DNA from: a virus
IMG/VR virus record: IMGVR_UViG_3300009695_000004
Span: 1 to 64,000 of that record
Direction: 5' to 3' (one strand)
Length of the DNA: 64,000 nucleotides
Below, one piece after another: positions 8,199-59,963 of the stretch. Both the position numbers and the translations under genes were made by a program. Within the stretch, counting starts at the first letter, position 1. Each line of letters opens with the position of its first letter. Below the pieces are notes generated by a model. It worked only from the letters and a program-made list of their open reading frames with translations. It had not been told where the DNA came from and searched no databases.

Positions 8199-9203
8199 TT
8201 AACCTGTCAAAATATCATCTAATTGTTGCTTCATTTTTTGTTTTTTAAATTCATAATATTGTTCAGGAGTATTATTACCATACTTATATATCAAATGAAA
8301 CTCTTTATGGATATCTTCTGATAAACATACTCCTAGTCCATATTTGTAATGCAATTTTAAGCATTCTTTATTTATCCTATGAATCTCCAACTCTGTATAA
8401 CAATTCATTTCACTATGTATAGGCAATACTAATTGGGCAATTGTTTCTTGCAATATATCACTAAACCCATAGAGATGATGTATGATGGTGCTATTTATTC
8501 CTGTAATATCACATTTATAATTATATTTTTTTAAACTATCTTGTTTCCAAACAGAGATTTTGGTTCTTAGATGTTCCGCAAGAGAACTTATACCACCTTT
8601 CCAATTGAAATTATTTTCTCCTTTATTTTCTAAATTAGCACATTTACTGCATCCATGCCCTCTGAATACACTATCCCATGTAGTTTCCCATTCATAATTA
8701 TCTATTTTACATTTGAATAAAAGCTTTTCTCTAGCATTTACATATCTTTTACTCAGTAGCTCTATATTTGGATTGATCTCTTTTAATTTTTGTTTAACTT
8801 CTTCGAGGCTCAATGTTATTGTATTCGCACAACTTGGGCATCCATGTCCACTTCTAAGATGGTCGTAAGTAGAAGACCATTTATATTCATCTTTCAAACA
8901 CTTACATAATAATTTATAATCAACTCCTTTATAAATAGTGTCCACTATTTCAATGTTGGGATTAATTTCAAACATATTTTCTTTAACTTGAGTAATATTA
9001 ATTTTGGGACGCCCTGCACATTTAGGACATCCTTTCCCTTTACTTAAATTAGAATAATTAGCATCCCATTCATATGCGTCTATCCTGCATTTACATTTTA
9101 ATTTTGTTGAGTTATTTATATATATTCCATTTAGAATTTCTATATTAGGACTGATAATCTCTATTCTTCTTTTGACTTCGTCTAATGTCAGTCTCTTTAA
9201 CAT
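8199..9203 (-). CDS. free-standing HNH-like homing endonuclease with three tandem Zn-ribbon modules
   Basis: Three repeats of about 70 aa end in GCPKCAG, GCPSCAN and GCSKCAN. C-terminal IHHLYGF...IHKEFH is HNH-like. The ATG at 9203 sits 2 nt after the helicase stop with AGGTG upstream; the track start is GTG 9212. Confidence 0.55.
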   Translation of the reverse strand: MLKRLTLDEVKRRIEIISPNIEILNGIYINNSTKLKCKCRIDAYEWDANYSNLSKGKGCPKCAGRPKINITQVKENMFEINPNIEIVDTIYKGVDYKLLCKCLKDEYKWSSTYDHLRSGHGCPSCANTITLSLEEVKQKLKEINPNIELLSKRYVNAREKLLFKCKIDNYEWETTWDSVFRGHGCSKCANLENKGENNFNWKGGISSLAEHLRTKISVWKQDSLKKYNYKCDITGINSTIIHHLYGFSDILQETIAQLVLPIHSEMNCYTELEIHRINKECLKLHYKYGLGVCLSEDIHKEFHLIYKYGNNTPEQYYEFKKQKMKQQLDDILTG

Positions 9204-49164: not shown

Positions 49165-51786
49165 TTGAATAAGCAAATTCATATATATAGTGTAGATACT
49201 AGTGCGTTTTATAACGAAGCCGAAATGATAATCCATAGAAGATTAAGCAAATTGTATTCCTATAAAAAAGAGTTGATTCGCAAACGAGATAAATTTAAAG
49301 TTGTATTTGTTAATGAAAAATGGAAAATAAATATAAAAAAGCGTATCAGACAGTCTAGTTTGGCAATTAAAAATACAAAGCAAGGTTTATATGTAAAATT
49401 TGGAGAAAATATTGGTATAAGAAATCTCAATGAAAAATCTTTAAATAAATATAATATAATTTCAATGTTCGACTCCAGTTTAACTAGATTAATGAAAATA
49501 CCAATAAATACTATTACAGAAGATATTATAGTTGTTCAAACATATTTCTTTGAAGTTATAAAAGATATTATTATAAATGGGTTTACCTCTAAAGGAGAAA
49601 GATATGTTTGCTTCACCGCTAGTGCAGGACAAATAAGAACAAAGAAAACTGTATTCATAAAAGAAAAAGTTCTGAAAGAACATATAAATGCTATTACCTG
49701 TGGACTGAGCCTAGAAGAGATAAACAGGCATGGAGGAGTTAATGTAAATAAATACTTAGCATACTTAGCCTTATGCAATTCAGCTACAGATGAATGGGAA
49801 GGATTTGATATAACTAAAACAATAGTTGTAGAAGATATGGATACCGAAGTTCCTGGAATTGTAGATTTTATTGATGATAAGACTTATGAAATTAAAAGAA
49901 CTCCTATGGAGATACCTATTTCACATACAGATGGGTGTGGGGTTATGTTGCCTAGCAAATATAAGAAGTCAAGAATGGCTAGACTACCCTGGATTAAAGG
50001 ACTTTTAGTCCCTATGCCCTTTGATAAGTTTATTCGTGAAAAATCTAAGGAAACAGGAGTATATTGTGGGATAATACAAGATATTTATGGAAAAGAACAT
50101 GATATTCTAAAAGAAAAAATTGAAGTTATATTTACCAGAAGTCAATTTAAGATGGCGAAGTATTATGATTCGTGGGAACAATATAAAGAGAACTTTATTA
50201 AATTTGGTTGTCAATCATGTAAATGTAATGAGGAAGAAGATATTTTCAGTGAGGCTAAATTGAATTACCAGATGCTACAAACCTTAATAGATATGGAGGT
50301 TCATGAATTAAAGCCTGTTATTAAAAAAACTAAATACAATATCATAAATATTGGCAAAGATAGAAAAACAATGTTGAAGGTGTTGGGTGTTGTGGCATCT
50401 AATATAAATAAGAACTATATTCAACAAGCATTAGAGATATATCCTGAATTATTGAATGATACCTATAGTAAAGAAATATTAAAACAAGTTAAAAAGAGTT
50501 TAGTTAAAGAAGGAAGATCTGGTAAATTAGATTTAGGCAAAAACGGAATATATACTTTTATCATTCCAGATTTATATGCTTTCTGTGAATATCTATTTCT
50601 TGGAATTAAAAATCCGGAAGGAATACTTAAGAGTACAGATGTTTATTGCAGTCTTTATAAAGATTCTCCTAAGTTGGACTGTCTAAGATCTCCTCATTTA
50701 TTTTTAGAGCACGCAGTTAGAAACAATGTTATAGACAAAGAGAAAGATAGATGGTTTATTACAAGTGGACTATATACAAGCTGTCACGATATGATCAGTA
50801 AAGTGTTAATGTTTGACAATGATGGTGATAAATCCCTATTATGTGCAGACACTACTATAATTACAGTTGCTGAAAGGAATATGAAAGATATTGTTCCCTT
50901 GTATTATAATATGGCTAAAGCTCCTGCGAAAGAAATAAACAACGAGGTTATATATGAAGGATTAAAGGCAGCATATACGGGAGGTAACATAGGTTTATAT
51001 AGTAATAATATAACAAAGATATGGAATAGCGAGAATATTAACCTTGAAGCAGTAAAATTATTATGTATGGAAAATAACTTTACAATTGATTATGCTAAGA
51101 CATTGTACAAGCCTAAAAGACCATCTGATAAACAGGAGTTAATTACTAATTATACCAAATCTAAAGTTCCAAGATTCTTCATTTACGCAAAAGATAAAGA
51201 AAAGGATAAAGTTGAAAAGGCCAATAATAGTACAGTAAATAAATTACTAAAAATGATTCCAAACCCTAATATTAATTTTAAGAATATGAAGTTGGGTGAA
51301 TTTGATTTTAAAATGTTAATGAAGAATAATGATGTTGAATTAGATGAAGTTATTATTAAAAAATATACGAAATTGGATTTAAAGAAACATTTTATGTTGA
51401 GTTCACATGATGAAGAATCTAATAATATGTGTTATTTATATCAGGATATTAAAAATCAAATATTAGAAGTTAATAGTGATATTAATTATGTAACAGATGT
51501 GTTGGTTAGGTATTTATATGAAGAAAAAAAATCTAGTTTCAAAACTACTTTATGGGAATGTTTTGGAGATATTATGGTTAAAAATTTAAAAAGGAATATT
51601 CCTAATGGTTTTGAAGATGGGTATATGTTGTGTGAAATATGTGGGGATAGAATTGAAGATAGTTGCAGCACTAAAAAATATTGTGAAAAATGTGCCAAAG
51701 AACAATGGAAAGAGCAAGTTAAACTAAATATGAGAGAATATCGTAAGAGAATCGTTATAAAACGAACCGAGTCTGTTAACCCTTGA
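49165..51786 (+). CDS. YonO-like single-subunit two-barrel RNA polymerase (RdRP/beta-prime-like DxDGD motif)
   Basis: MFDNDGDKS (D-N-D-G-D at 50815-50829) matches the universal Mg-binding DxDGD/NADFDGD motif. FTASAGQIRTKKTVF (49612-) resembles the SQLR-type motif of the RdRP/YonO family. At 873 aa it is similar in size to SPbeta YonO. C-terminal Zn ribbon CEICGD...CEKC. Confidence 0.6.
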   Translation: MNKQIHIYSVDTSAFYNEAEMIIHRRLSKLYSYKKELIRKRDKFKVVFVNEKWKINIKKRIRQSSLAIKNTKQGLYVKFGENIGIRNLNEKSLNKYNIISMFDSSLTRLMKIPINTITEDIIVVQTYFFEVIKDIIINGFTSKGERYVCFTASAGQIRTKKTVFIKEKVLKEHINAITCGLSLEEINRHGGVNVNKYLAYLALCNSATDEWEGFDITKTIVVEDMDTEVPGIVDFIDDKTYEIKRTPMEIPISHTDGCGVMLPSKYKKSRMARLPWIKGLLVPMPFDKFIREKSKETGVYCGIIQDIYGKEHDILKEKIEVIFTRSQFKMAKYYDSWEQYKENFIKFGCQSCKCNEEEDIFSEAKLNYQMLQTLIDMEVHELKPVIKKTKYNIINIGKDRKTMLKVLGVVASNINKNYIQQALEIYPELLNDTYSKEILKQVKKSLVKEGRSGKLDLGKNGIYTFIIPDLYAFCEYLFLGIKNPEGILKSTDVYCSLYKDSPKLDCLRSPHLFLEHAVRNNVIDKEKDRWFITSGLYTSCHDMISKVLMFDNDGDKSLLCADTTIITVAERNMKDIVPLYYNMAKAPAKEINNEVIYEGLKAAYTGGNIGLYSNNITKIWNSENINLEAVKLLCMENNFTIDYAKTLYKPKRPSDKQELITNYTKSKVPRFFIYAKDKEKDKVEKANNSTVNKLLKMIPNPNINFKNMKLGEFDFKMLMKNNDVELDEVIIKKYTKLDLKKHFMLSSHDEESNNMCYLYQDIKNQILEVNSDINYVTDVLVRYLYEEKKSSFKTTLWECFGDIMVKNLKRNIPNGFEDGYMLCEICGDRIEDSCSTKKYCEKCAKEQWKEQVKLNMREYRKRIVIKRTESVNP

Positions 51787-55789: not shown

Positions 55790-56422
55790 ATGAAAGCAAA
55801 TTGGGATATATTTTTCGAACCAGAGGTAAGAGATTTAACAAAATTACATTTACCTGACCCCGAAACATTAGATTATTATGAAAGAATCTTAAATAGGGAA
55901 ATATCTTGGAATTGTGAAATTGATGATAGTTTAATTGACTTTTCATTGATGATAATTAAATGGAATAGACAAGATAAAGGTATACCTATTGAAGATAGAA
56001 AACCTATAAAAGTATTGATAAACTCTGATGGTGGCGAGCTTGTAGCAGTTATGAATTTCATAAATACAATGCAGCTTTCTAAAACACCTGTATGGACAAT
56101 AGGTATGGGTAAAACATATTCCGCAGGTGGATTAATGTTATTGGCTGGCACTAAAGGACATAGATACATATTTCAAGATACTACTGCTTTAATTCATGCA
56201 GGATCTACAGGAGCTATGGGAAATACCGACAAAGTATTGGATAACTTTGAATTTACACAAAAACAAGAAAAAAGAGTTAAGGAATTCGTAGTTGCCAATA
56301 CAAAGATAACTGATAAATTATTTACAAAGAATTATAGAAAAGATTGGTGGTTAATGTCCGAGGAAATAATTTCATTGGGTGTGGCCGACAAGATTATAAC
56401 TGATTTGGACGAAATATTTTAA
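55790..56422 (+). CDS. clpP: ClpP-family serine protease
   Basis: INSDGGELVAVMNFINTM, GKTYSAGGLMLLAG (Ser), ALIHAGS (His) and LGVADKII (Asp region). Confidence 0.8.
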   Translation: MKANWDIFFEPEVRDLTKLHLPDPETLDYYERILNREISWNCEIDDSLIDFSLMIIKWNRQDKGIPIEDRKPIKVLINSDGGELVAVMNFINTMQLSKTPVWTIGMGKTYSAGGLMLLAGTKGHRYIFQDTTALIHAGSTGAMGNTDKVLDNFEFTQKQEKRVKEFVVANTKITDKLFTKNYRKDWWLMSEEIISLGVADKIITDLDEIF

Positions 56423-56459
56423 TATAGGGTTGCTACCATAGCAGAAGGAGATAAGGATT

Positions 56460-56678
56460 ATGTGTGAATGTTCAGAGTGTTGTAGTGCGGAAGAATTTGA
56501 AGAAGAAGAATTAACTCAGGAAGAAGTAGTTTCTCTATCTTTAGAGATGATAGAAGATGGAGAATGTCTTAAGTGTACTTTAGATACTATTTTCGAATAT
56601 GCTTATTCATTAGGCAAAAGAGATTTAGCAAGAGAATCGAGAGACTTTTATCAAGATGTTTTAGATGAAGAAGAGTAG
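56460..56678 (+). CDS. hypothetical highly acidic protein (72 aa)
   Basis: ORF track; GAAGGAGATAAGGATT RBS. Confidence 0.55.
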   Translation: MCECSECCSAEEFEEEELTQEEVVSLSLEMIEDGECLKCTLDTIFEYAYSLGKRDLARESRDFYQDVLDEEE

Positions 56679-57073
56679 ATAGAAATTTAAGGGAAATCTG
56701 TGATTACTATAGGAAGTGTTATATAGACGTATATAACGGGATACACAGACATGTGCTTAGAGGTGTTAGTAGCACAAAATAAAGGATACTGAGTAAGTGA
56801 AACAGGCAGACACTTCGCTTGATGCAAACTAACCTATATGGATTGTGTGTCGAGTCTTAAAAATAGTTTGATTGGATTATCAGACTGAGTTATGCGAGAA
56901 TGCCACCTCGCCTTATCCTTTATAGTATGATTATAAACCCACTTTCCAGTATATTTCTTAGTATACTCTCTTAAAGAGTGCGGGAGTTAAGGTGCTGATT
57001 GTTCAGTGACACAAGGGTCTTTATAATTTATATCTTTATGGAGCTAAAGGCTCGAAATAATAATCTTTGGGAT

Positions 57074-57247
57074 AAAACTAAATTAAGTAGTGGCGGAATA
57101 TTTACCATCGTGGTAATAGTAGACGCTAGATTGATTAACATTAGAAACTATCGAGGTGTAATTCCTATAACGCCTTTGGAGTTGATCACCATTGACTGCG
57201 TAAGGTTTTCATGTTGGGTGCAAATCCCTACCTACTTAATCAGTTTT
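57074..57247 (+). ncRNA. structured module A closed by long-range helix
   Basis: ATTAAGTAG (57082-90) pairs with CTACTTAAT (57232-40), extended by AAAAC (57074-78) with GTTTT (57243-47). The interior starts TGGCGGAATAT. Confidence 0.45.
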
Positions 57248-58517
57248 AAAATTTAAGAGGTAGTTTAGGCATATATTTATATGTTTATCTACAGCCTTCC
57301 ATGATTGCAAGTGGAAGTTTATAATAGTGCGAAAACACTTTAAATATGGAGATAGCAGAAGCAGTCTCCTTCTGTACCTAGAGACAATAAATACATAGGT
57401 TAGTAGGCTTGGTTAGAGTCTCAGAACTAATCTGCTTCTATGGGTGTTAGTGTAACGATAGCACACCTTCAAAGGATACGTAGAACACGTTTGACTCGTG
57501 TACATCCTAATAATATTATTTTAAAAGAAGATTTTCTCATAGAGCGTGAGAAATTAAAAATAAAGAAAGCTCAATTATAAGATTTAGTTGTAGAACGCAA
57601 CTAAGTAAAAATAAAGAAAGTTCAATAGAAGAATGTTTTATAGCAGACGTAAGGTCAAACAAAAGACTGTTGAGGATCGGAAATGTTCCCGACACGCTAT
57701 CTATATTGATAGTTAACAGGTATGTAGGAAGTGCAGCCCTACCAACAGTCTAATTCTATGTAAGCTATATACCTATTCGCACCTAGAAGCCTGTGCGAGG
57801 ACGATGATAAGGGGAAACATCTAAAACCCTATAGCAAAAAATCTATAATACTAGGCAATATAGGTTTAATCTTATTTATATTACAAGGTGTATCCAGCCT
57901 TCGAAAATGGAAACTTTAAATTCATGCCATACACCAAGGGGCTTTGTACCTTGGCTATTTAGTCCGATAAGGACAAAAGTTGCACGAGTAATGACGATAG
58001 TTAACAAAGTGTAATGAAGGTAATACAACAGTTCGGAGATTACCTTTGAGACGGGAACTCCTTAAAAACGCCTAGGGAATCGCAGCGCAAATAGGAAAGG
58101 TCTAAAGTGTTTTGCGATAAACATACACTTATAGATTTATCTCACTTCTTTAAATAACAGTTCTCTCAAGCCTCTGTTTATAATGCTATTATAATTAAGC
58201 GTAACAATGAGAGCCAGAAATTTATATTTTGATAGCGACATAAATCATGTGGTTTATGTGGTTTAGGAGGAGGATTATTTTCTAATATTAACTTAAAGTT
58301 AGTGTATCTGTTGAGATACTAGCCTTTGTTACTTTATGCGATAAATTAAAGTAAATAGTATGTCGCTACTCGATATGCGACTAATAAAAGGTCGAGTTCA
58401 AATGTTGTAATCTATGGAGAGTCCCTACCATATAGTGGGAAACTTTAAACTCAAGTTCTTTAAATTTAGTTATAAATTCTTTATATATGAAGACTTTCGT
58501 ACTATTGTTAAAGAACT

Positions 58518-58636
58518 AATAAGTAGTGGCGAAATATAAACGCATGACACCTACGACTTGACTACTTTCTAGAGGTAGAGATTAGGTGATTAAACAATCA
58601 AGTCCTGCAAAGGTGAAAGTCCTTTGTCTACTTATT
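58518..58636 (+). ncRNA. structured module B, paralogue of module A
   Basis: AATAAGTAG (58518-26) pairs with CTACTTATT (58628-36). Relative to module A, one base pair is swapped U-A to A-U on both strands. The interior starts TGGCGAAATAT. Inner hairpin CAAAGG/CCTTTG. Confidence 0.45.
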
Positions 58637-58862
58637 CTTAAAATATTATGACTCATTTATATTTAGTAAGCCAAAGGGCATACACAATCATACAAACTTC
58701 CATGAACGACTAACTACATTGGATTTGTTGTTCTAAAAAAGTAGAGAGGTGTTTAGAAGTGCTTAGATTGCCAAATGGTCGAAGCTACCTCGATACTAGC
58801 CTGAGTTTGGGTTTGTAGGGCTCAAAAGGTTTTGCTGCTTTCCGAAAAAGCAGATTTAATAT

Positions 58863-58937
58863 GCTGATATGACTCAACGGTAGAGTAGCACACTTGTAAT
58901 GTGCAAGTTGTAGGTTCAAATCCTATTGTCAGCTCCA
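58863..58937 (+). tRNA. trnT: tRNA-Thr (anticodon UGU) with encoded CCA
   Basis: Folded manually. Acceptor GCTGATA/TGTCAGC (one G-U), D stem ACTC/GAGT, anticodon stem GCACA/TGTGC, loop CTTGTAA, T stem GTAGG/CCTAT, T loop TTCAAAT, discriminator T, then CCA. Confidence 0.9.
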
Positions 58938-58944
58938 GGAGCTT

Positions 58945-58976
58945 TGGTGATGGTACTCCGTTAATAACAATCACCA
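58945..58976 (+). terminator. possible terminator hairpin after tRNA
   Basis: TGGTGAT pairs with ATCACCA (7 bp, 18-nt loop), followed by CCCCCTTATATTT. The U-run is poor. Confidence 0.3.
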
Positions 58977-59051
58977 CCCCCTTATATTTAGAATAATGCA
59001 CATTTTAAAAGGTGTCTATTGTTAAGGTGTTTATTCTTGTGGATATAACTA

Positions 59052-59070
59052 ACAAATCAAATATAATATA
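59052..59070 (+). promoter_or_regulatory. phage promoter-like motif (perfect), upstream of packaging genes
   Basis: ACAAATCAAATATAATATA, 17 nt before GTG 59088. Confidence 0.55.
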
Positions 59071-59087
59071 TAAAGGAGAGATTTACT

Positions 59088-59963
59088 GTGGGTGTAGCAT
59101 CTGTAAGTAAAAAGTGTCCGTTATGTGGCGACAATAAAAAATTTGAGTCTTATTACAGCCATAGAGATAACTCAAAAGAACATGGAAGAGACGTAATCTG
59201 CAAGATTTGCAGTAAAACCATGGCGTCTTCTAAAGAAGGAATGATGAGATATTGTAGTACCAATTCAAGAAGGTTTGATGAAGTTCTTTGGAAGTGGGCT
59301 GAAGATAAAATAACATTGAAACTTAAAGAAGATATTGAACACAACTCATTGAGTGAAGATAAGAAGAAAAAGATACTCAATGAAAAAATAGCGAGTGCTT
59401 ATTTTGGTCAGATGAATCAAGTTAATTGGTATGCGTTTATTCCGGATAGTTCGGTGGACATTAAAGAGCTAAAAGCTGATTTAGAGGATGAAGAATACGA
59501 CAATACTCCTATTAAGAAGAGAAAAGAACGAAAAACATATTCTTTAAAATGGGCAGGAGATTTTACAGCAGAAGAAATTATTTATTTAGAGGATCAATAT
59601 AAGAAAGCACAAGATCAATATGATCTTAAGACTGGAAATGATTTTGAGTATGCTATGAATGTTGCAGTTGCTGGATTGATAGTTCGTAAAAATCGAAATG
59701 GATATTTAAATGGAGAAAATGGAGCGGATAAAAGATATAAAGAGGCGGTAGCAATTTATGACTCTTTGTGTACAAGTTCTAAATTTAACCAGAAGACACG
59801 CTCGACCAACGATACCGCTGGCTTAGGGTCTCTAAGTGAAATTGTAGCAAAATTAGAACAAACAGGATTTCTTCAGAAGAAAATTATATTTGAAGATGAT
59901 AGTATTGAGAAGGTTAACGCCGATTTACGTCATGTTTTAAGCAGCGTAGGTGGTGACAGTTAA
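59088..59963 (+). CDS. putative terminase small subunit / DNA-binding protein with N-terminal Zn ribbon
   Basis: Assigned by its position directly upstream of, and overlapping, the large terminase gene. Contains CPLCGD...CKIC. GTG start after AAAGGAGAG. Confidence 0.4.
   Translation: MGVASVSKKCPLCGDNKKFESYYSHRDNSKEHGRDVICKICSKTMASSKEGMMRYCSTNSRRFDEVLWKWAEDKITLKLKEDIEHNSLSEDKKKKILNEKIASAYFGQMNQVNWYAFIPDSSVDIKELKADLEDEEYDNTPIKKRKERKTYSLKWAGDFTAEEIIYLEDQYKKAQDQYDLKTGNDFEYAMNVAVAGLIVRKNRNGYLNGENGADKRYKEAVAIYDSLCTSSKFNQKTRSTNDTAGLGSLSEIVAKLEQTGFLQKKIIFEDDSIEKVNADLRHVLSSVGGDS

Follow-up and report, generated by a model that had tools for sequence, protein, structure and literature searches.

What occupies the 2.2 kb that separate a ClpP-like protease gene and a small acidic ORF from a putative small terminase gene (terS) in the phage DNA analysed here? 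The window, by which we mean the whole 64,000-nt stretch, comes from a large phage (~122 kb) that probably infects Clostridium, and in it the region at 56690-58937 and all its neighbours read on the same strand. A sequence-only reading had proposed a giant structured RNA of the GOLLD or ROOL type, several tandem copies of one, or a new class. Our analysis makes it quite likely that the region does not encode one giant RNA but forms a phage 'RNA gene island', in which many small structured RNAs, each with a gene of its own, are lined up.

The claim that the region lacks a coding signal was borne out. No credible ORF lies in 56679-59087: the largest, which had been called junk-like (85 aa, TTG start, 56999-57256), has no match in Pfam or PHROG, and all others span 52 aa or less. 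The idea of a decayed protein gene was dropped when tblastn with all ORFs of five relatives returned no match there. G+C content is 35.2% across 56690-58937; the window as a whole has 29.1%, and the flanks have 28.8% on the upstream side and 31.7% on the downstream side. The enrichment reported earlier is real, and the line 57721-57780 does reach 40%, but the mean excess is only ~6 points and a value of ~40% does not hold throughout.

The region is also dense in structure, as had been judged by eye. In 120-nt windows on the + strand, the mean MFE z-score was -1.11 in the region versus -0.05 in 252 flanking windows (Mann-Whitney p = 4e-7), and it remained at -1.03 without the windows covering Rfam motifs; on the minus strand it was weaker (-0.61). 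The excess was uneven, with z of about -3 at 56776-56925, 57960-58079 and 58410-58520 and folding indistinguishable from shuffles at 57751-57885 and 58720-58862. Promoter-like sites were no more numerous in a consensus scan of the region than expected from shuffles, and a terminator scan was not above chance. The reading of a non-coding region, rich in structured RNA and transcribable on the + strand like its neighbours, is supported.

A gathering-threshold scan of the whole window with Rfam 15 returned a tRNA, a skipping-rope RNA and two 6A RNAs, all on the + strand. When cmscan was relaxed to E ≤ 10 over 56000-59500, only three chance hits joined them, and GOLLD, ROOL and all other large-RNA families stayed absent, which speaks against the GOLLD or ROOL class that had been suggested. 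Every stem and repeat listed in the sequence-only reading is nevertheless present exactly where it was placed, and several belong to the small RNAs described below. The island comprises tRNA-Thr(UGU), a skipping-rope RNA with a possible expanded variant, two tandem 6A RNAs, and the elements X, Y, A, B, Z and P. Together with the other features of the region they are, in order:

56781-56922, + strand: possible expanded skipping-rope-like RNA, closed by AAGGAUA/UAUCCUU, with a ~75-nt expansion of the central arm.
57072-57253, + strand: module A, a multibranch RNA closed by AUUAAGUAG/CUACUUAAU (MFE z -2.7).
57443-57507, + strand: truncated duplicate of 56762-56790 (GGTGTTAGT..AGCACA..AAAGGATAC), then a hairpin with a T-loop-like 7-nt loop (MFE z -0.5).
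57491-57519, + strand: sigma-70-like promoter match from a consensus scan only (TTGACT-17-TATTAT), with the 6A pair starting 10 nt downstream.
57529-57579, + strand: 6A RNA copy 1 (Rfam RF02925), 56.3 bits (gathering score 41.2) over all 52 model positions.
57580-57630, + strand: 6A RNA copy 2, abutting copy 1, 55.0 bits (gathering score 41.2) over all 52 model positions.
57665-57750, + strand: canonical skipping-rope RNA (Rfam RF02924), 58.8 bits (gathering score 36.7) over all 80 model positions.
57752-57895, + strand: element Y, a conserved structured module of ~140 nt with homologues at L089 25-165 and L103 1603-1748.
57905-57924, + strand: motif Z copy 1, a small hairpin with conserved loop ACUUUAAA (GGAAACUUUAAAUUCA), recurring at 58438.
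57960-58079, + strand: unassigned cluster of stable hairpins including AAGGUAAU/AUUACCUU (MFE z -2.8; 2 of 200 shuffles as stable).
58300-58360, + strand: element P, with a conserved 38-nt core, TACTAGCnTTTrTTACTTTnGCGAwAAATTAAAGTAA, also in L002, L090, L103 and L092.
58362-58396, + strand: element X, an H-type pseudoknot of 10 bp followed by UUCAAAU, with homologues in L103, L090 and L025.
58434-58453, + strand: motif Z copy 2 (GGGAAACUUUAAACUCA), a repeat of copy 1.
58454-58517, + strand: long imperfect hairpin with 32-nt arms, 75% complementary (MFE z -3.1 for 58410-58520).
58505-58650, + strand: module B, a cloverleaf-like four-way junction of ~145 nt with a homologue at L103 1712-1856 (nhmmer E 1e-10).
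58863-58937, + strand: tRNA-Thr(UGU) with the CCA end encoded (ARAGORN; Rfam RF00005, 68.6 bits).

The canonical skipping-rope RNA, whose last hairpin is the GTAGG/CCTAC stem that had been paired by eye, also scored 67.5 bits with R2, a model built here; its structure was set by hand because RNAalifold, run on 19 skipping-rope RNAs aligned with MAFFT, yielded no more than one helix. An early strict pattern for this RNA had a single match over IMG/VR. Skipping-rope RNAs are present at the same locus in six clade members, with terS identity to the window down to 37%. The window copy is 83% identical to the one in a temperate phage contig (L022), and this likeness to the RNA of an unrelated phage suggests horizontal transfer.

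The AAGGATA/TATCCTT stem of the sequence-only reading would close a second, expanded RNA of this kind. An HMM of the clade's variants, made from Rfam-verified RNAs of L025 and L090 (two copies), matched 56799-56919 in nhmmer (E 0.026), and the candidate at 56781-56922 folds with a z-score of -3.0. In a local alignment with L090 2745-2860, both sequences hold AGGAUA..GAAACAGGCAG.. and share a 3' block, GAG..AUG.G.GA.UGCCA.C.CGCCUUAUCC. The R2 score was weak (7.1 bits, E 0.49), and no Rfam family matched the candidate at E ≤ 10.

A comparison of four 6A sequences shows the hairpin and a GAGC/GCUC pseudoknot paired in every one. All 10 pairs are kept, 5 of them with compensatory change; copy 2 departs from the commonest pair among the four, in a compensatory manner, four times in the hairpin and once in the pseudoknot (GAAC/GUUC). 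A type III antitoxin RNA array would call for tandem repeats adjoining a ToxN/AbiQ-type toxin gene and for a tandem layout throughout the family. We rejected the 6A pair as a mimic of such an antitoxin: two other 6A loci are single-copy and lack a toxin gene, no toxin gene adjoins the pair in the window, and the skipping-rope loci contain no 6A RNA.

Elements X and Y had no Rfam match at E ≤ 10. Stem 1 of X pairs GUCGC (58362-58366) with GCGAC (58377-58381), and stem 2 pairs CUCGA (58369-58373) with UCGAG (58392-58396); all 10 pairs form in all 4 sequences, 4 with compensatory change, and slid controls were 20-35% paired. Element Y has an outer helix (57764-57769/57830-57835) and hairpins at 57776-57799, which contains the by-eye stem TCGCAC/GTGCGA as a covarying helix, and at 57839-57867. 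Its homologues were found by nhmmer at E ~1e-12 from the single window sequence and at 1e-37 to 1e-41 after iteration. The Y consensus has 27 pairs with 96% of cells paired, 4 compensatory, against 16-43% paired in slid controls. These covariation counts for X and Y, like those for module B, come from only 2-4 sequences per module and lean towards the structures, because the structures were derived from the same sequences. Motif Z occurs twice in L090 (3317-3391) and twice in L091 (2470-2535).

The core of element P holds an inverted repeat, TTACTTT/AAAGTAA, whose stem never varies, so that an RNA and a DNA role cannot be told apart. P marks the start of the cluster in most relatives that carry it: it lies near the start of the non-coding cluster in L002, L103 and L092, in the last of which it abuts a skipping-rope RNA, and in L090 a 198-aa ORF separates it from the first skipping-rope RNA. 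The 64-kb window has P at a single place, and we therefore rejected it as a general phage promoter. P may instead serve the cluster as its promoter, its leader or a site of processing.

In module B an 8-bp helix closes the junction, followed by UG, a hairpin with the stem GCG/CGC, a long arm at the centre and a 7-bp hairpin; this last one has the loop UGAAAGU and lies directly against the 3' closing strand. In the consensus with its relative, 28 of 28 pairs are kept in both sequences, 7 with compensatory change, and B folds with a z-score of -2.1; no Rfam family, that of the tRNAs included, matched it at E ≤ 10. Modules A and B share the 5' motif TAAGTAGTGGCGRAATAT and a closing strand. The openings at 57082 and 58518 and the closing strands CTACTTA[AT]T at 57232 and 58628 agree with the paralogy that had been noticed by eye, and the U-A to A-U pair swap in the closing helix is there as described; for B this helix is kept through compensatory changes in the relative, and A has the same helix sequence. 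Self-BLAST aligned 57067-57101 with 58505-58537 at 80% over 35 nt (E 0.006). Module A thus appears, from sequence likeness, to be a diverged paralogue of B. A covariance model of B homologues scored A at 22.9 bits (E 0.11) with default filters and at 10.7 bits (E 0.5) with filters off, and covariance models weakly support both this homology and the expanded skipping-rope variant. R2 also gave 9.4 bits on the minus strand of module A, which is probably spurious. No homologue of A was found outside the present phage, and an exact-pattern scan of IMG/VR with TAAGTAGTGGCGRAATAT gave no matches.

As had been claimed, a tRNA-Thr ends the region; its anticodon is UGU, and it is the conserved core of the cluster. 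It lies upstream of terS and on the terS strand in 12 of 37 tabulated relatives, as well as in L002 and L014. The truncated duplicate at 57443-57507 is probably a remnant; ARAGORN called a tRNA with a defective anticodon arm at 57441-57509, only at relaxed thresholds (-ps80, -ps70). The Rfam tRNA model RF00005 found nothing besides tRNA-Thr in 56000-59500 at E ≤ 10. An array of tRNA pseudogenes was rejected, with one weak, defective ARAGORN candidate and none from the Rfam tRNA model. The module B model gave the true tRNA-Thr only 10.9 bits, and modules A and B and 57441-57509 are cloverleaf-like in topology only.

How these modules behave in other phages bears directly on whether they form one molecule. 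Searches with blastn using the whole region and 57430-57800 against 50,697 phage records gave nothing or 30-nt noise, so the homologous-region comparison suggested earlier was of no use by that route; relatives found via the neighbouring terS gene did show helices kept by compensatory change. Contigs with identical TerS or ClpP-like proteins (L006-L013), copies of this very phage from different samples, are 100% identical across the region and hence carry no covariation information, one metagenome scan with TerS yielded a single relative at 59% identity, and the contigs of the closest TerS relative (89% identity) have only 15 nt ahead of terS. At least one + strand tRNA, most commonly Thr(UGU), lies upstream in 23 of the 37 terS-homologue loci whose upstream contig DNA was examined.

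Among related phages, the RNA sets at this locus differ in combination. L025 has a skipping-rope RNA with tRNA-Tyr, Thr and Met, L090 two skipping-rope RNAs with tRNAs, L092 a skipping-rope RNA with a tRNA, and L014 four tRNAs, while the L089 segment examined has Y with tRNAs alone. L103 has the order P, skipping-rope, X, Y and B, with five tRNA or tRNA-like genes behind them, compared with skipping-rope, Y, P, X and B in the window; in L025 a 264-aa ORF stands between X and the skipping-rope RNA. Because orders, copy numbers and subsets vary and ORFs intervene, the modules look like independent small RNA genes. No homologues were found for 56923-57071, 57254-57442, 57925-58299 and 58651-58862, which make up about half of the 2.2 kb and include the hairpin cluster at 57960-58079, nor for the long hairpin at 58454-58517.

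The same variability is incompatible with one giant RNA or its tandem copies. A single very large structured RNA over most of the 2.2 kb, with the modules as its domains, would suit a long, ORF-free, G+C-richer stretch adjoining a tRNA in a phage, the + strand excess of local structure and the long-range inverted repeats of ~70% complementarity; those repeats, however, are weak and none is kept in relatives. Three pieces of the stretch are independently defined small Rfam families, the large-RNA models stay silent even at E ≤ 10, and modules stand alone, reordered or ORF-separated in relatives; a GOLLD/ROOL scaffold of roughly 600-800 nt with always co-occurring domains was not found in L025, L089, L090, L092 or L103. 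We therefore give this explanation almost no credence. The suggested new class holds in part, as several small uncatalogued motifs but not as a single giant class. A cis-acting DNA element, whether a packaging site (pac/cos), a replication origin or a late-operon promoter/operator, is also very improbable. The position immediately upstream of terS and terL would fit it, as would the assembly break next to the 89% identical terS, and the invariant inverted repeat of P could bind a protein. Yet, the two 6A units apart, the region has neither iterons nor tandem repeats, its GC skew shows no turn, its structure excess is strand-asymmetric, covariance models match RNA families in it, and its G-U-tolerant compensatory changes are a signature of RNA and not of duplex DNA sites. 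For P alone, a role as DNA could still apply.

Harder to dismiss, although still improbable, is a decaying or selfish assemblage of tRNA-array remnants and mobile RNA-like modules spread between phages, with little or no function for the phage beyond the tRNA. Variation at the locus is extreme (relatives whose TerL is 82-84% identical have only ~90 nt and the tRNA in common with the window), it contains the truncated duplicate and tRNA-like remnants seen only at relaxed thresholds, and aberrant tRNA-like genes occur in L002 (8456-8529) and L103 ('Tyr(ata)'). The suggested horizontal transfer of the skipping-rope RNA and the several segments that fold no better than chance would also be expected. 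Against this stand the compensatory substitutions by which X, Y, B and both 6A RNAs keep their helices and which point to purifying selection on structure, the recurrence of skipping-rope RNA across distant clade members, and the intact tRNA-Thr with its encoded CCA end.

How might an island of separate RNA genes work? By analogy with phage tRNA clusters, transcription would yield a single precursor or a few, one of them starting near P, with the promoter-like site at 57491 perhaps giving rise to a second, and host tRNA-processing nucleases would cut these into stable small RNAs. With less assurance, we suppose that the tRNA-Thr would replace damaged host tRNA and that the other members of the island may work in trans on enzymes that target RNA. 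To our knowledge, skipping-rope and 6A RNAs, though catalogued since 2017, have no known function.

Gene neighbourhood offers a lead for the skipping-rope RNA. A PBECR3-like gene (PF18812) adjoins it in 25 of 59 genomic pattern matches, nearly always 30-120 nt upstream on the same strand; the RNase gene is absent at the other 34, of which ~10 are chance matches inside long ORFs. In the prophage loci examined, the pair is flanked by a CI-like repressor (~8 loci) and an integrase (3 confirmed), and viral contig L022 has the same arrangement. PBECR domains are predicted metal-independent endoRNases (PMC5512222), and PBECR3 has been grouped with colicin-like BECR RNases (bioRxiv 10.64898/2026.08.28.747851). 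A six-frame search of the 64-kb window with an HMM of 24 such proteins gave no PBECR3-like ORF at E ≤ 1, and the clade loci examined (L089-L172) contained no homologue. PBECR3 has no match in PADLOC, and we dropped the idea that it is a known defence protein. A skipping-rope RNA that usually lies behind PBECR3 in prophage immunity regions and is an orphan in the DNA examined here could therefore bind and neutralise the colicin-like RNase; neighbourhood, the sole basis of the idea, suggests a decoy or antitoxin mimic.

One may go further and see the island as an RNA counter-defence arsenal in which the orphan skipping-rope RNAs of this phage clade disarm a prophage PBECR3 RNase and A, B, X, Y and 6A are further decoys, a reading that we offer tentatively and judge rather unlikely. 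Its parts, held jointly at that same low level, are that skipping-rope RNA is the immunity factor or target mimic of an unrecognised prophage PBECR3 system, that PBECR3 and skipping-rope are expressed from the prophage repressor-integrase region, and that A, B, X, Y and 6A, among them at least three new RNA families, decoy RNA- or tRNA-targeting enzymes.

Finding skipping-rope and 6A RNAs in a phage island, and skipping-rope RNA behind a predicted RNase elsewhere, opens their function to experiment. The locus adds X, Y and the A/B module as candidate RNA motifs, three that Rfam 15 does not contain, and presents the 'tRNA region' across a clade of large phages of Clostridium-like hosts as a shuffling ground for structured RNAs. 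It also carries a correction for readers of such sequences, as a helix-rich, ORF-free stretch by a phage tRNA need not be a GOLLD/ROOL-type giant. Were the modules decoys, RNA-based anti-defence would extend beyond the single ToxI example.

Set against known systems, the region shares with GOLLD and ROOL (Weinberg et al. 2017, PMC5737381) a phage setting, adjoining tRNA genes, a long ORF-free stretch and many helices, but it splits into units of 35 to ~180 nt found independently in relatives and has no conserved multi-junction scaffold spanning the whole stretch. Its skipping-rope RNA keeps the three-hairpin fold and the conserved GAGG, GGAAA and AUG..GGA..GC..CC nucleotides of RF02924. That family was described with terminators behind it and with an association with a particular nearby protein gene (PMC5737381), whereas the window copy has no terminator-like site behind it (57750-58600, + strand), with element Y starting 2 nt downstream, and lacks the associated protein gene that elsewhere, as PBECR3, usually lies directly upstream. 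It sits in a tRNA/ncRNA island, and a general link between skipping-rope RNA and tRNAs was rejected, a tRNA lying within 2 kb in only 1 of 59 genomic matches. The two full-length 6A copies likewise keep the hairpin and A-rich tail of RF02925; they form a head-to-tail pair, whereas two IMG/VR examples are single copies directly past a stop codon, and their loop-to-tail pseudoknot GAGC/GCUC, with one compensatory pair, is absent from the structure line of the Rfam model.

In architecture, we draw a parallel with the tRNA region of phage T4, which encodes eight tRNAs and the stable RNAs C and D. Both are ORF-free stretches of co-oriented small RNA genes between protein-coding modules, with tRNA genes alongside non-tRNA stable RNAs and a content that differs among related phages. 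The window, in contrast, has one true tRNA and ~2 kb dominated by non-tRNA modules, which include skipping-rope, 6A and motifs absent from Rfam 15, and processing from a common precursor is assumed for it. For the decoy idea, the working analogy is ToxI, a type III antitoxin RNA, and pseudo-ToxI, its mimic borne by phage PhiTE. In ToxI systems an RNA repeat array lies upstream of a nuclease with the ToxN/AbiQ fold, whereas the prophage skipping-rope RNA lies downstream of its nuclease gene and PBECR3 has the BECR fold. In both, an endoRNase gene on a mobile element has a genetic link to a small structured RNA with a pseudoknot, and the phage of the window, like PhiTE, carries the RNA without the nuclease.

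The gene-free 2.2 kb at 56690-58937 is a phage tRNA/small-RNA island, about half of it covered by assigned modules, and our analysis establishes its architecture, the family memberships of its RNAs and the conservation of their folds. An acidic 72-aa ORF stops at 56678 and the next long ORF opens at 59088; in between, the longest ORF encodes 85 aa, with no match to a protein family. The stems, repeats and coordinates picked out by the sequence-only reading were all found again exactly as listed, confirming an ORF-free, structure-dense region; the rise in G+C noted there is real but moderate (35.2% in 56690-58937 vs 29.1% across the whole window), the proposed 40% being true of single lines only. 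In sliding 120-nt windows scored against dinucleotide shuffles, the + strand has a mean folding z-score of -1.11 in the region versus -0.05 in 252 flanking windows (p = 4e-7), and the value is still -1.03 without windows over Rfam motifs. The minus strand is weaker (-0.61), and stability is patchy, some segments reaching z of about -3 and others equalling their shuffles.

Scanning with Rfam 15 at gathering thresholds returned four matches in the region, all on the + strand:

57529-57579, + strand, 6A RNA (RF02925) copy 1, 56.3 bits (gathering score 41.2)
57580-57630, + strand, 6A RNA copy 2, abutting copy 1, 55.0 bits (gathering score 41.2)
57665-57750, + strand, full-length skipping-rope RNA (RF02924), 58.8 bits (gathering score 36.7)
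58863-58937, + strand, tRNA-Thr(UGU)

All pairs are intact in the second 6A copy, with compensatory changes at four pairs of the hairpin and one of the loop-to-tail pseudoknot, counted against the most frequent pair at each position in a comparison of four 6A sequences. The other two 6A RNAs retrieved lie in high-G+C phage contigs (L015 2360-2741 and L021 848-1140; 97% identity over 185 nt), each 4-6 nt behind a stop codon. There, 6A stands at the head of non-coding DNA that bears additional conserved hairpins (~380 nt in L015, ~290 nt in L021), and the end of L021 resembles the first part of a tRNA.

Upstream, the island is flanked by genes for an HNH endonuclease, an SbcD-like exonuclease and a ClpP-like protease and by the acidic 72-aa ORF; on the downstream side come the presumed small terminase, a zinc-ribbon protein (TerS, gene terS), the large terminase (TerL) and the portal. 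The nearest named phage, Clostridium phage c-st, has a TerL only 33% identical, and TerS homologues carry the names Clostridium sp., Clostridium sp. FP2 and C. estertheticum. Several metagenome assemblies contain the same phage with 100% identity, including one contig of 122 kb, and such copies offer no variation usable for covariation. IMG/VR relatives with 82-84% identical TerL have almost no DNA in common with the region, yet tRNAs occupy the same place. For the closest relative (89% identical TerS), two independent assemblies (L023 and L024) both start exactly 15 nt before terS; assembly may be breaking off at this hypervariable or repetitive RNA island. Relatives with informative clusters, reached outward from TerS homologues, carry the following:

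L025, skipping-rope RNA with tRNA-Tyr, tRNA-Thr(UGU) and tRNA-Met
L090, two skipping-rope RNAs with tRNAs
L092, skipping-rope RNA with one tRNA
L014, tRNA-Cys, tRNA-Phe, tRNA-Trp and tRNA-Thr(UGU)
L103, a 1.95-kb non-coding stretch behind a ClpP-like gene, with a skipping-rope RNA (65 bits with R2, our own covariance model of this RNA with a hand-supplied structure) and five tRNA or tRNA-like genes

Within the upstream DNA present, 23 of 37 TerS-homologue loci have at least one tRNA upstream on the terS strand, and Thr(UGU) is by far the commonest tRNA among the 37. Carrying a small-RNA cluster upstream of terS is therefore characteristic of the clade, and tRNA-Thr forms the core of that cluster.

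Several clusters hold further elements. A CUA-anticodon tRNA, labelled 'Pyl' by ARAGORN, lies ~1.4-2.5 kb upstream of terS in L112, L114, L123, L134, L135 and L143; such a tRNA would suppress amber codons, which may be a sign that these distant relatives recode TAG. Aberrant tRNA-like genes occur in L002 (8456-8529) and L103 (~2068-2145 and 2200-2275), the calls comprising one two-base 'anticodon' (ARAGORN), one Tyr(AUA) and one further Ser(GGA) in L103; where tested, the Rfam tRNA model accepts them with 41-47 bits. Downstream of the tRNAs, extra conserved non-coding blocks absent from the window are found in L002 (~8790-9080), L025 (~1830-2140) and L103 (~2690-2830), with 82% identity between L002 and L025 over 584 nt; one block is the hairpin AGAGAGAAUA...UAUUCUCUCU.

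Profile searches of the region against ~0.9 Mb of TerS-homologue loci uncovered homologues of modules outside Rfam. Module X (58362-58396) is an H-type pseudoknot with homologues in L103, L090 and L025; all four sequences keep each of the 10 pairs, 4 of which are changed on both sides, and sliding the partner strand by 1-3 columns left pairing at 20-35%. Module Y (57752-57895), with homologues in L089 and L103, has a consensus of 27 pairs in which 96% of cells are paired and 4 pairs are compensatory. Among the stems first paired by eye, TCGCAC/GTGCGA is part of Y, and GTAGG/CCTAC forms the final hairpin of the skipping-rope RNA. Module B (58505-58650) has a homologue in L103, and 28 of 28 pairs hold in both sequences, 7 of them changed on both sides. 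Its modelled fold is a cloverleaf-like four-way junction, running from an 8-bp closing helix through UG, a short GCG/CGC hairpin and a long central arm to a 7-bp hairpin that has a 7-nt loop and lies directly against the 3' closing strand; Rfam did not recognise B as a tRNA (E<=10). Module A (57072-57253) has a 5' motif and closing helix in common with B and is weakly backed by the covariance model of the B homologues (22.9 bits, E 0.11 with default filters; 10.7 bits with filters off). Because the covariation draws on 2-4 sequences per module, with structures drawn from those same sequences, the new motifs are candidates.

Shorter elements complete the inventory. Element P (58300-58360) has a 38-nt core that occurs once in the 64-kb window and also in L002, L090, L103 and L092; it lies near the cluster start in L002, L103 and L092 and directly abuts the skipping-rope RNA in the last. 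Its inverted repeat is invariant, so that RNA and DNA roles are inseparable. Element Z, a short hairpin with the loop ACUUUAAA, is present in two copies each in the window, L090 and L091. The segment 56781-56922, closed by AAGGATA/TATCCTT (another stem first paired by eye), has 5' and 3' blocks that resemble those of expanded skipping-rope variants in L090 and L025; given its poor covariance-model score (E 0.49), we grade it only as a possible expanded variant. The stretch 57443-57507 looks like a shortened duplicate. R2 also matched the minus strand of module A (57081-57241; 9.4 bits, E ~0.1), scoring above the candidate variant at 56784-56918, and this reverse-strand match is probably spurious. 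The 3' strand of X and its tail (58392-58403) read GGUCGAGUUCAAAU, matching the 5' strand of a tRNA T-stem plus T-loop, with the pairing partner upstream where a tRNA T-stem has it downstream; the likeness may stem from tRNA ancestry or from a tertiary motif of the T-loop type.

The density of structure in a phage region ending in tRNA-Thr had suggested one or more giant RNAs of the GOLLD or ROOL type, or a new class. Dense structured non-coding RNA is indeed present, but it is neither GOLLD, ROOL nor any single giant RNA. A permissive Rfam scan of 56000-59500 (E<=10) gave no match to GOLLD, ROOL, OLE, raiA, HEARO or other large RNAs, the extra matches being of chance quality. Module order also differs, with skipping-rope, Y, P, X and B in the window versus P, skipping-rope, X, Y and B in L103, and copy number varies (skipping-rope once or twice; 6A, among the loci compared, in the window only). 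Subsets occur, with L089, whose sequence starts at the contig end, holding Y with tRNAs only, and ORFs intervene: one of 264 aa between X and skipping-rope in L025, and one of 198 aa between P and the first skipping-rope RNA in L090. Each module has a closing helix of its own. Independent genes show this pattern, those of phage tRNA clusters included. The tRNA/small-RNA island is unusual in that non-tRNA modules dominate, including two Rfam motifs of unexplained function and at least three candidate motifs absent from Rfam 15.

Outside this clade, skipping-rope RNA keeps different company. Scanning GTDB genomes with a sequence pattern picked up 59 skipping-rope-like sites, about 10 of them chance matches inside long ORFs; Rfam re-testing of 12 loci, 11 without an RNase gene, recovered skipping-rope in 12 of 12 (54-79 bits). 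A tRNA lies within 2 kb in only 1 of the 59, and 25 adjoin a gene for a 117-147-aa PBECR3 protein (PF18812), nearly always 30-120 nt upstream on the same strand. Bacterial examples include L035, L079, L087 (from Clostridium cavendishii) and 21 other loci among L030-L088, and the temperate-phage contig L022 (3659-4213) has the same arrangement. The prophage loci examined have the pair flanked by a CI-like repressor (HTH_3 + Peptidase_S24) on one side and a tyrosine integrase on the other. PBECR domains have been predicted to be metal-independent phage endoRNases (PMC5512222), and PBECR3 has been placed with colicin-like BECR RNases (bioRxiv 10.64898/2026.08.28.747851); it is not in PADLOC. The pair looks like an unrecognised RNase-plus-RNA cassette of the lysogeny module. 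Weinberg et al. describe skipping-rope as having a "compelling association" with a neighbouring protein, unnamed in the text concerned (PMC5737381), so the association itself is probably already known.

No PBECR3-like protein is encoded in the window or in the clade loci examined, making the phage skipping-rope copies orphans. ToxI and pseudo-ToxI provide a precedent for decoy RNAs, and by analogy an orphan skipping-rope could neutralise a prophage-borne RNase or divert it, and tRNA-Thr would stand in for damaged tRNA; we hypothesize this from gene neighbourhoods. The cluster would be co-transcribed, perhaps starting at P and at 57491, where a promoter-like site lies (such sites being no commoner than chance), and the precursors would be cut by tRNA-maturation nucleases. 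An 873-aa protein of the same phage (L006 78-2699, ~49165-51786 of the window) weakly matches PF05183 (RdRP fold). YonO-type single-subunit RNA polymerases occur in SPbeta-like phages; the protein recalls them, and a phage polymerase could transcribe the island. Its closest parallel in layout is the tRNA region of phage T4, which encodes two extra stable RNAs of unknown function: in both, non-tRNA stable RNAs lie beside tRNA genes.
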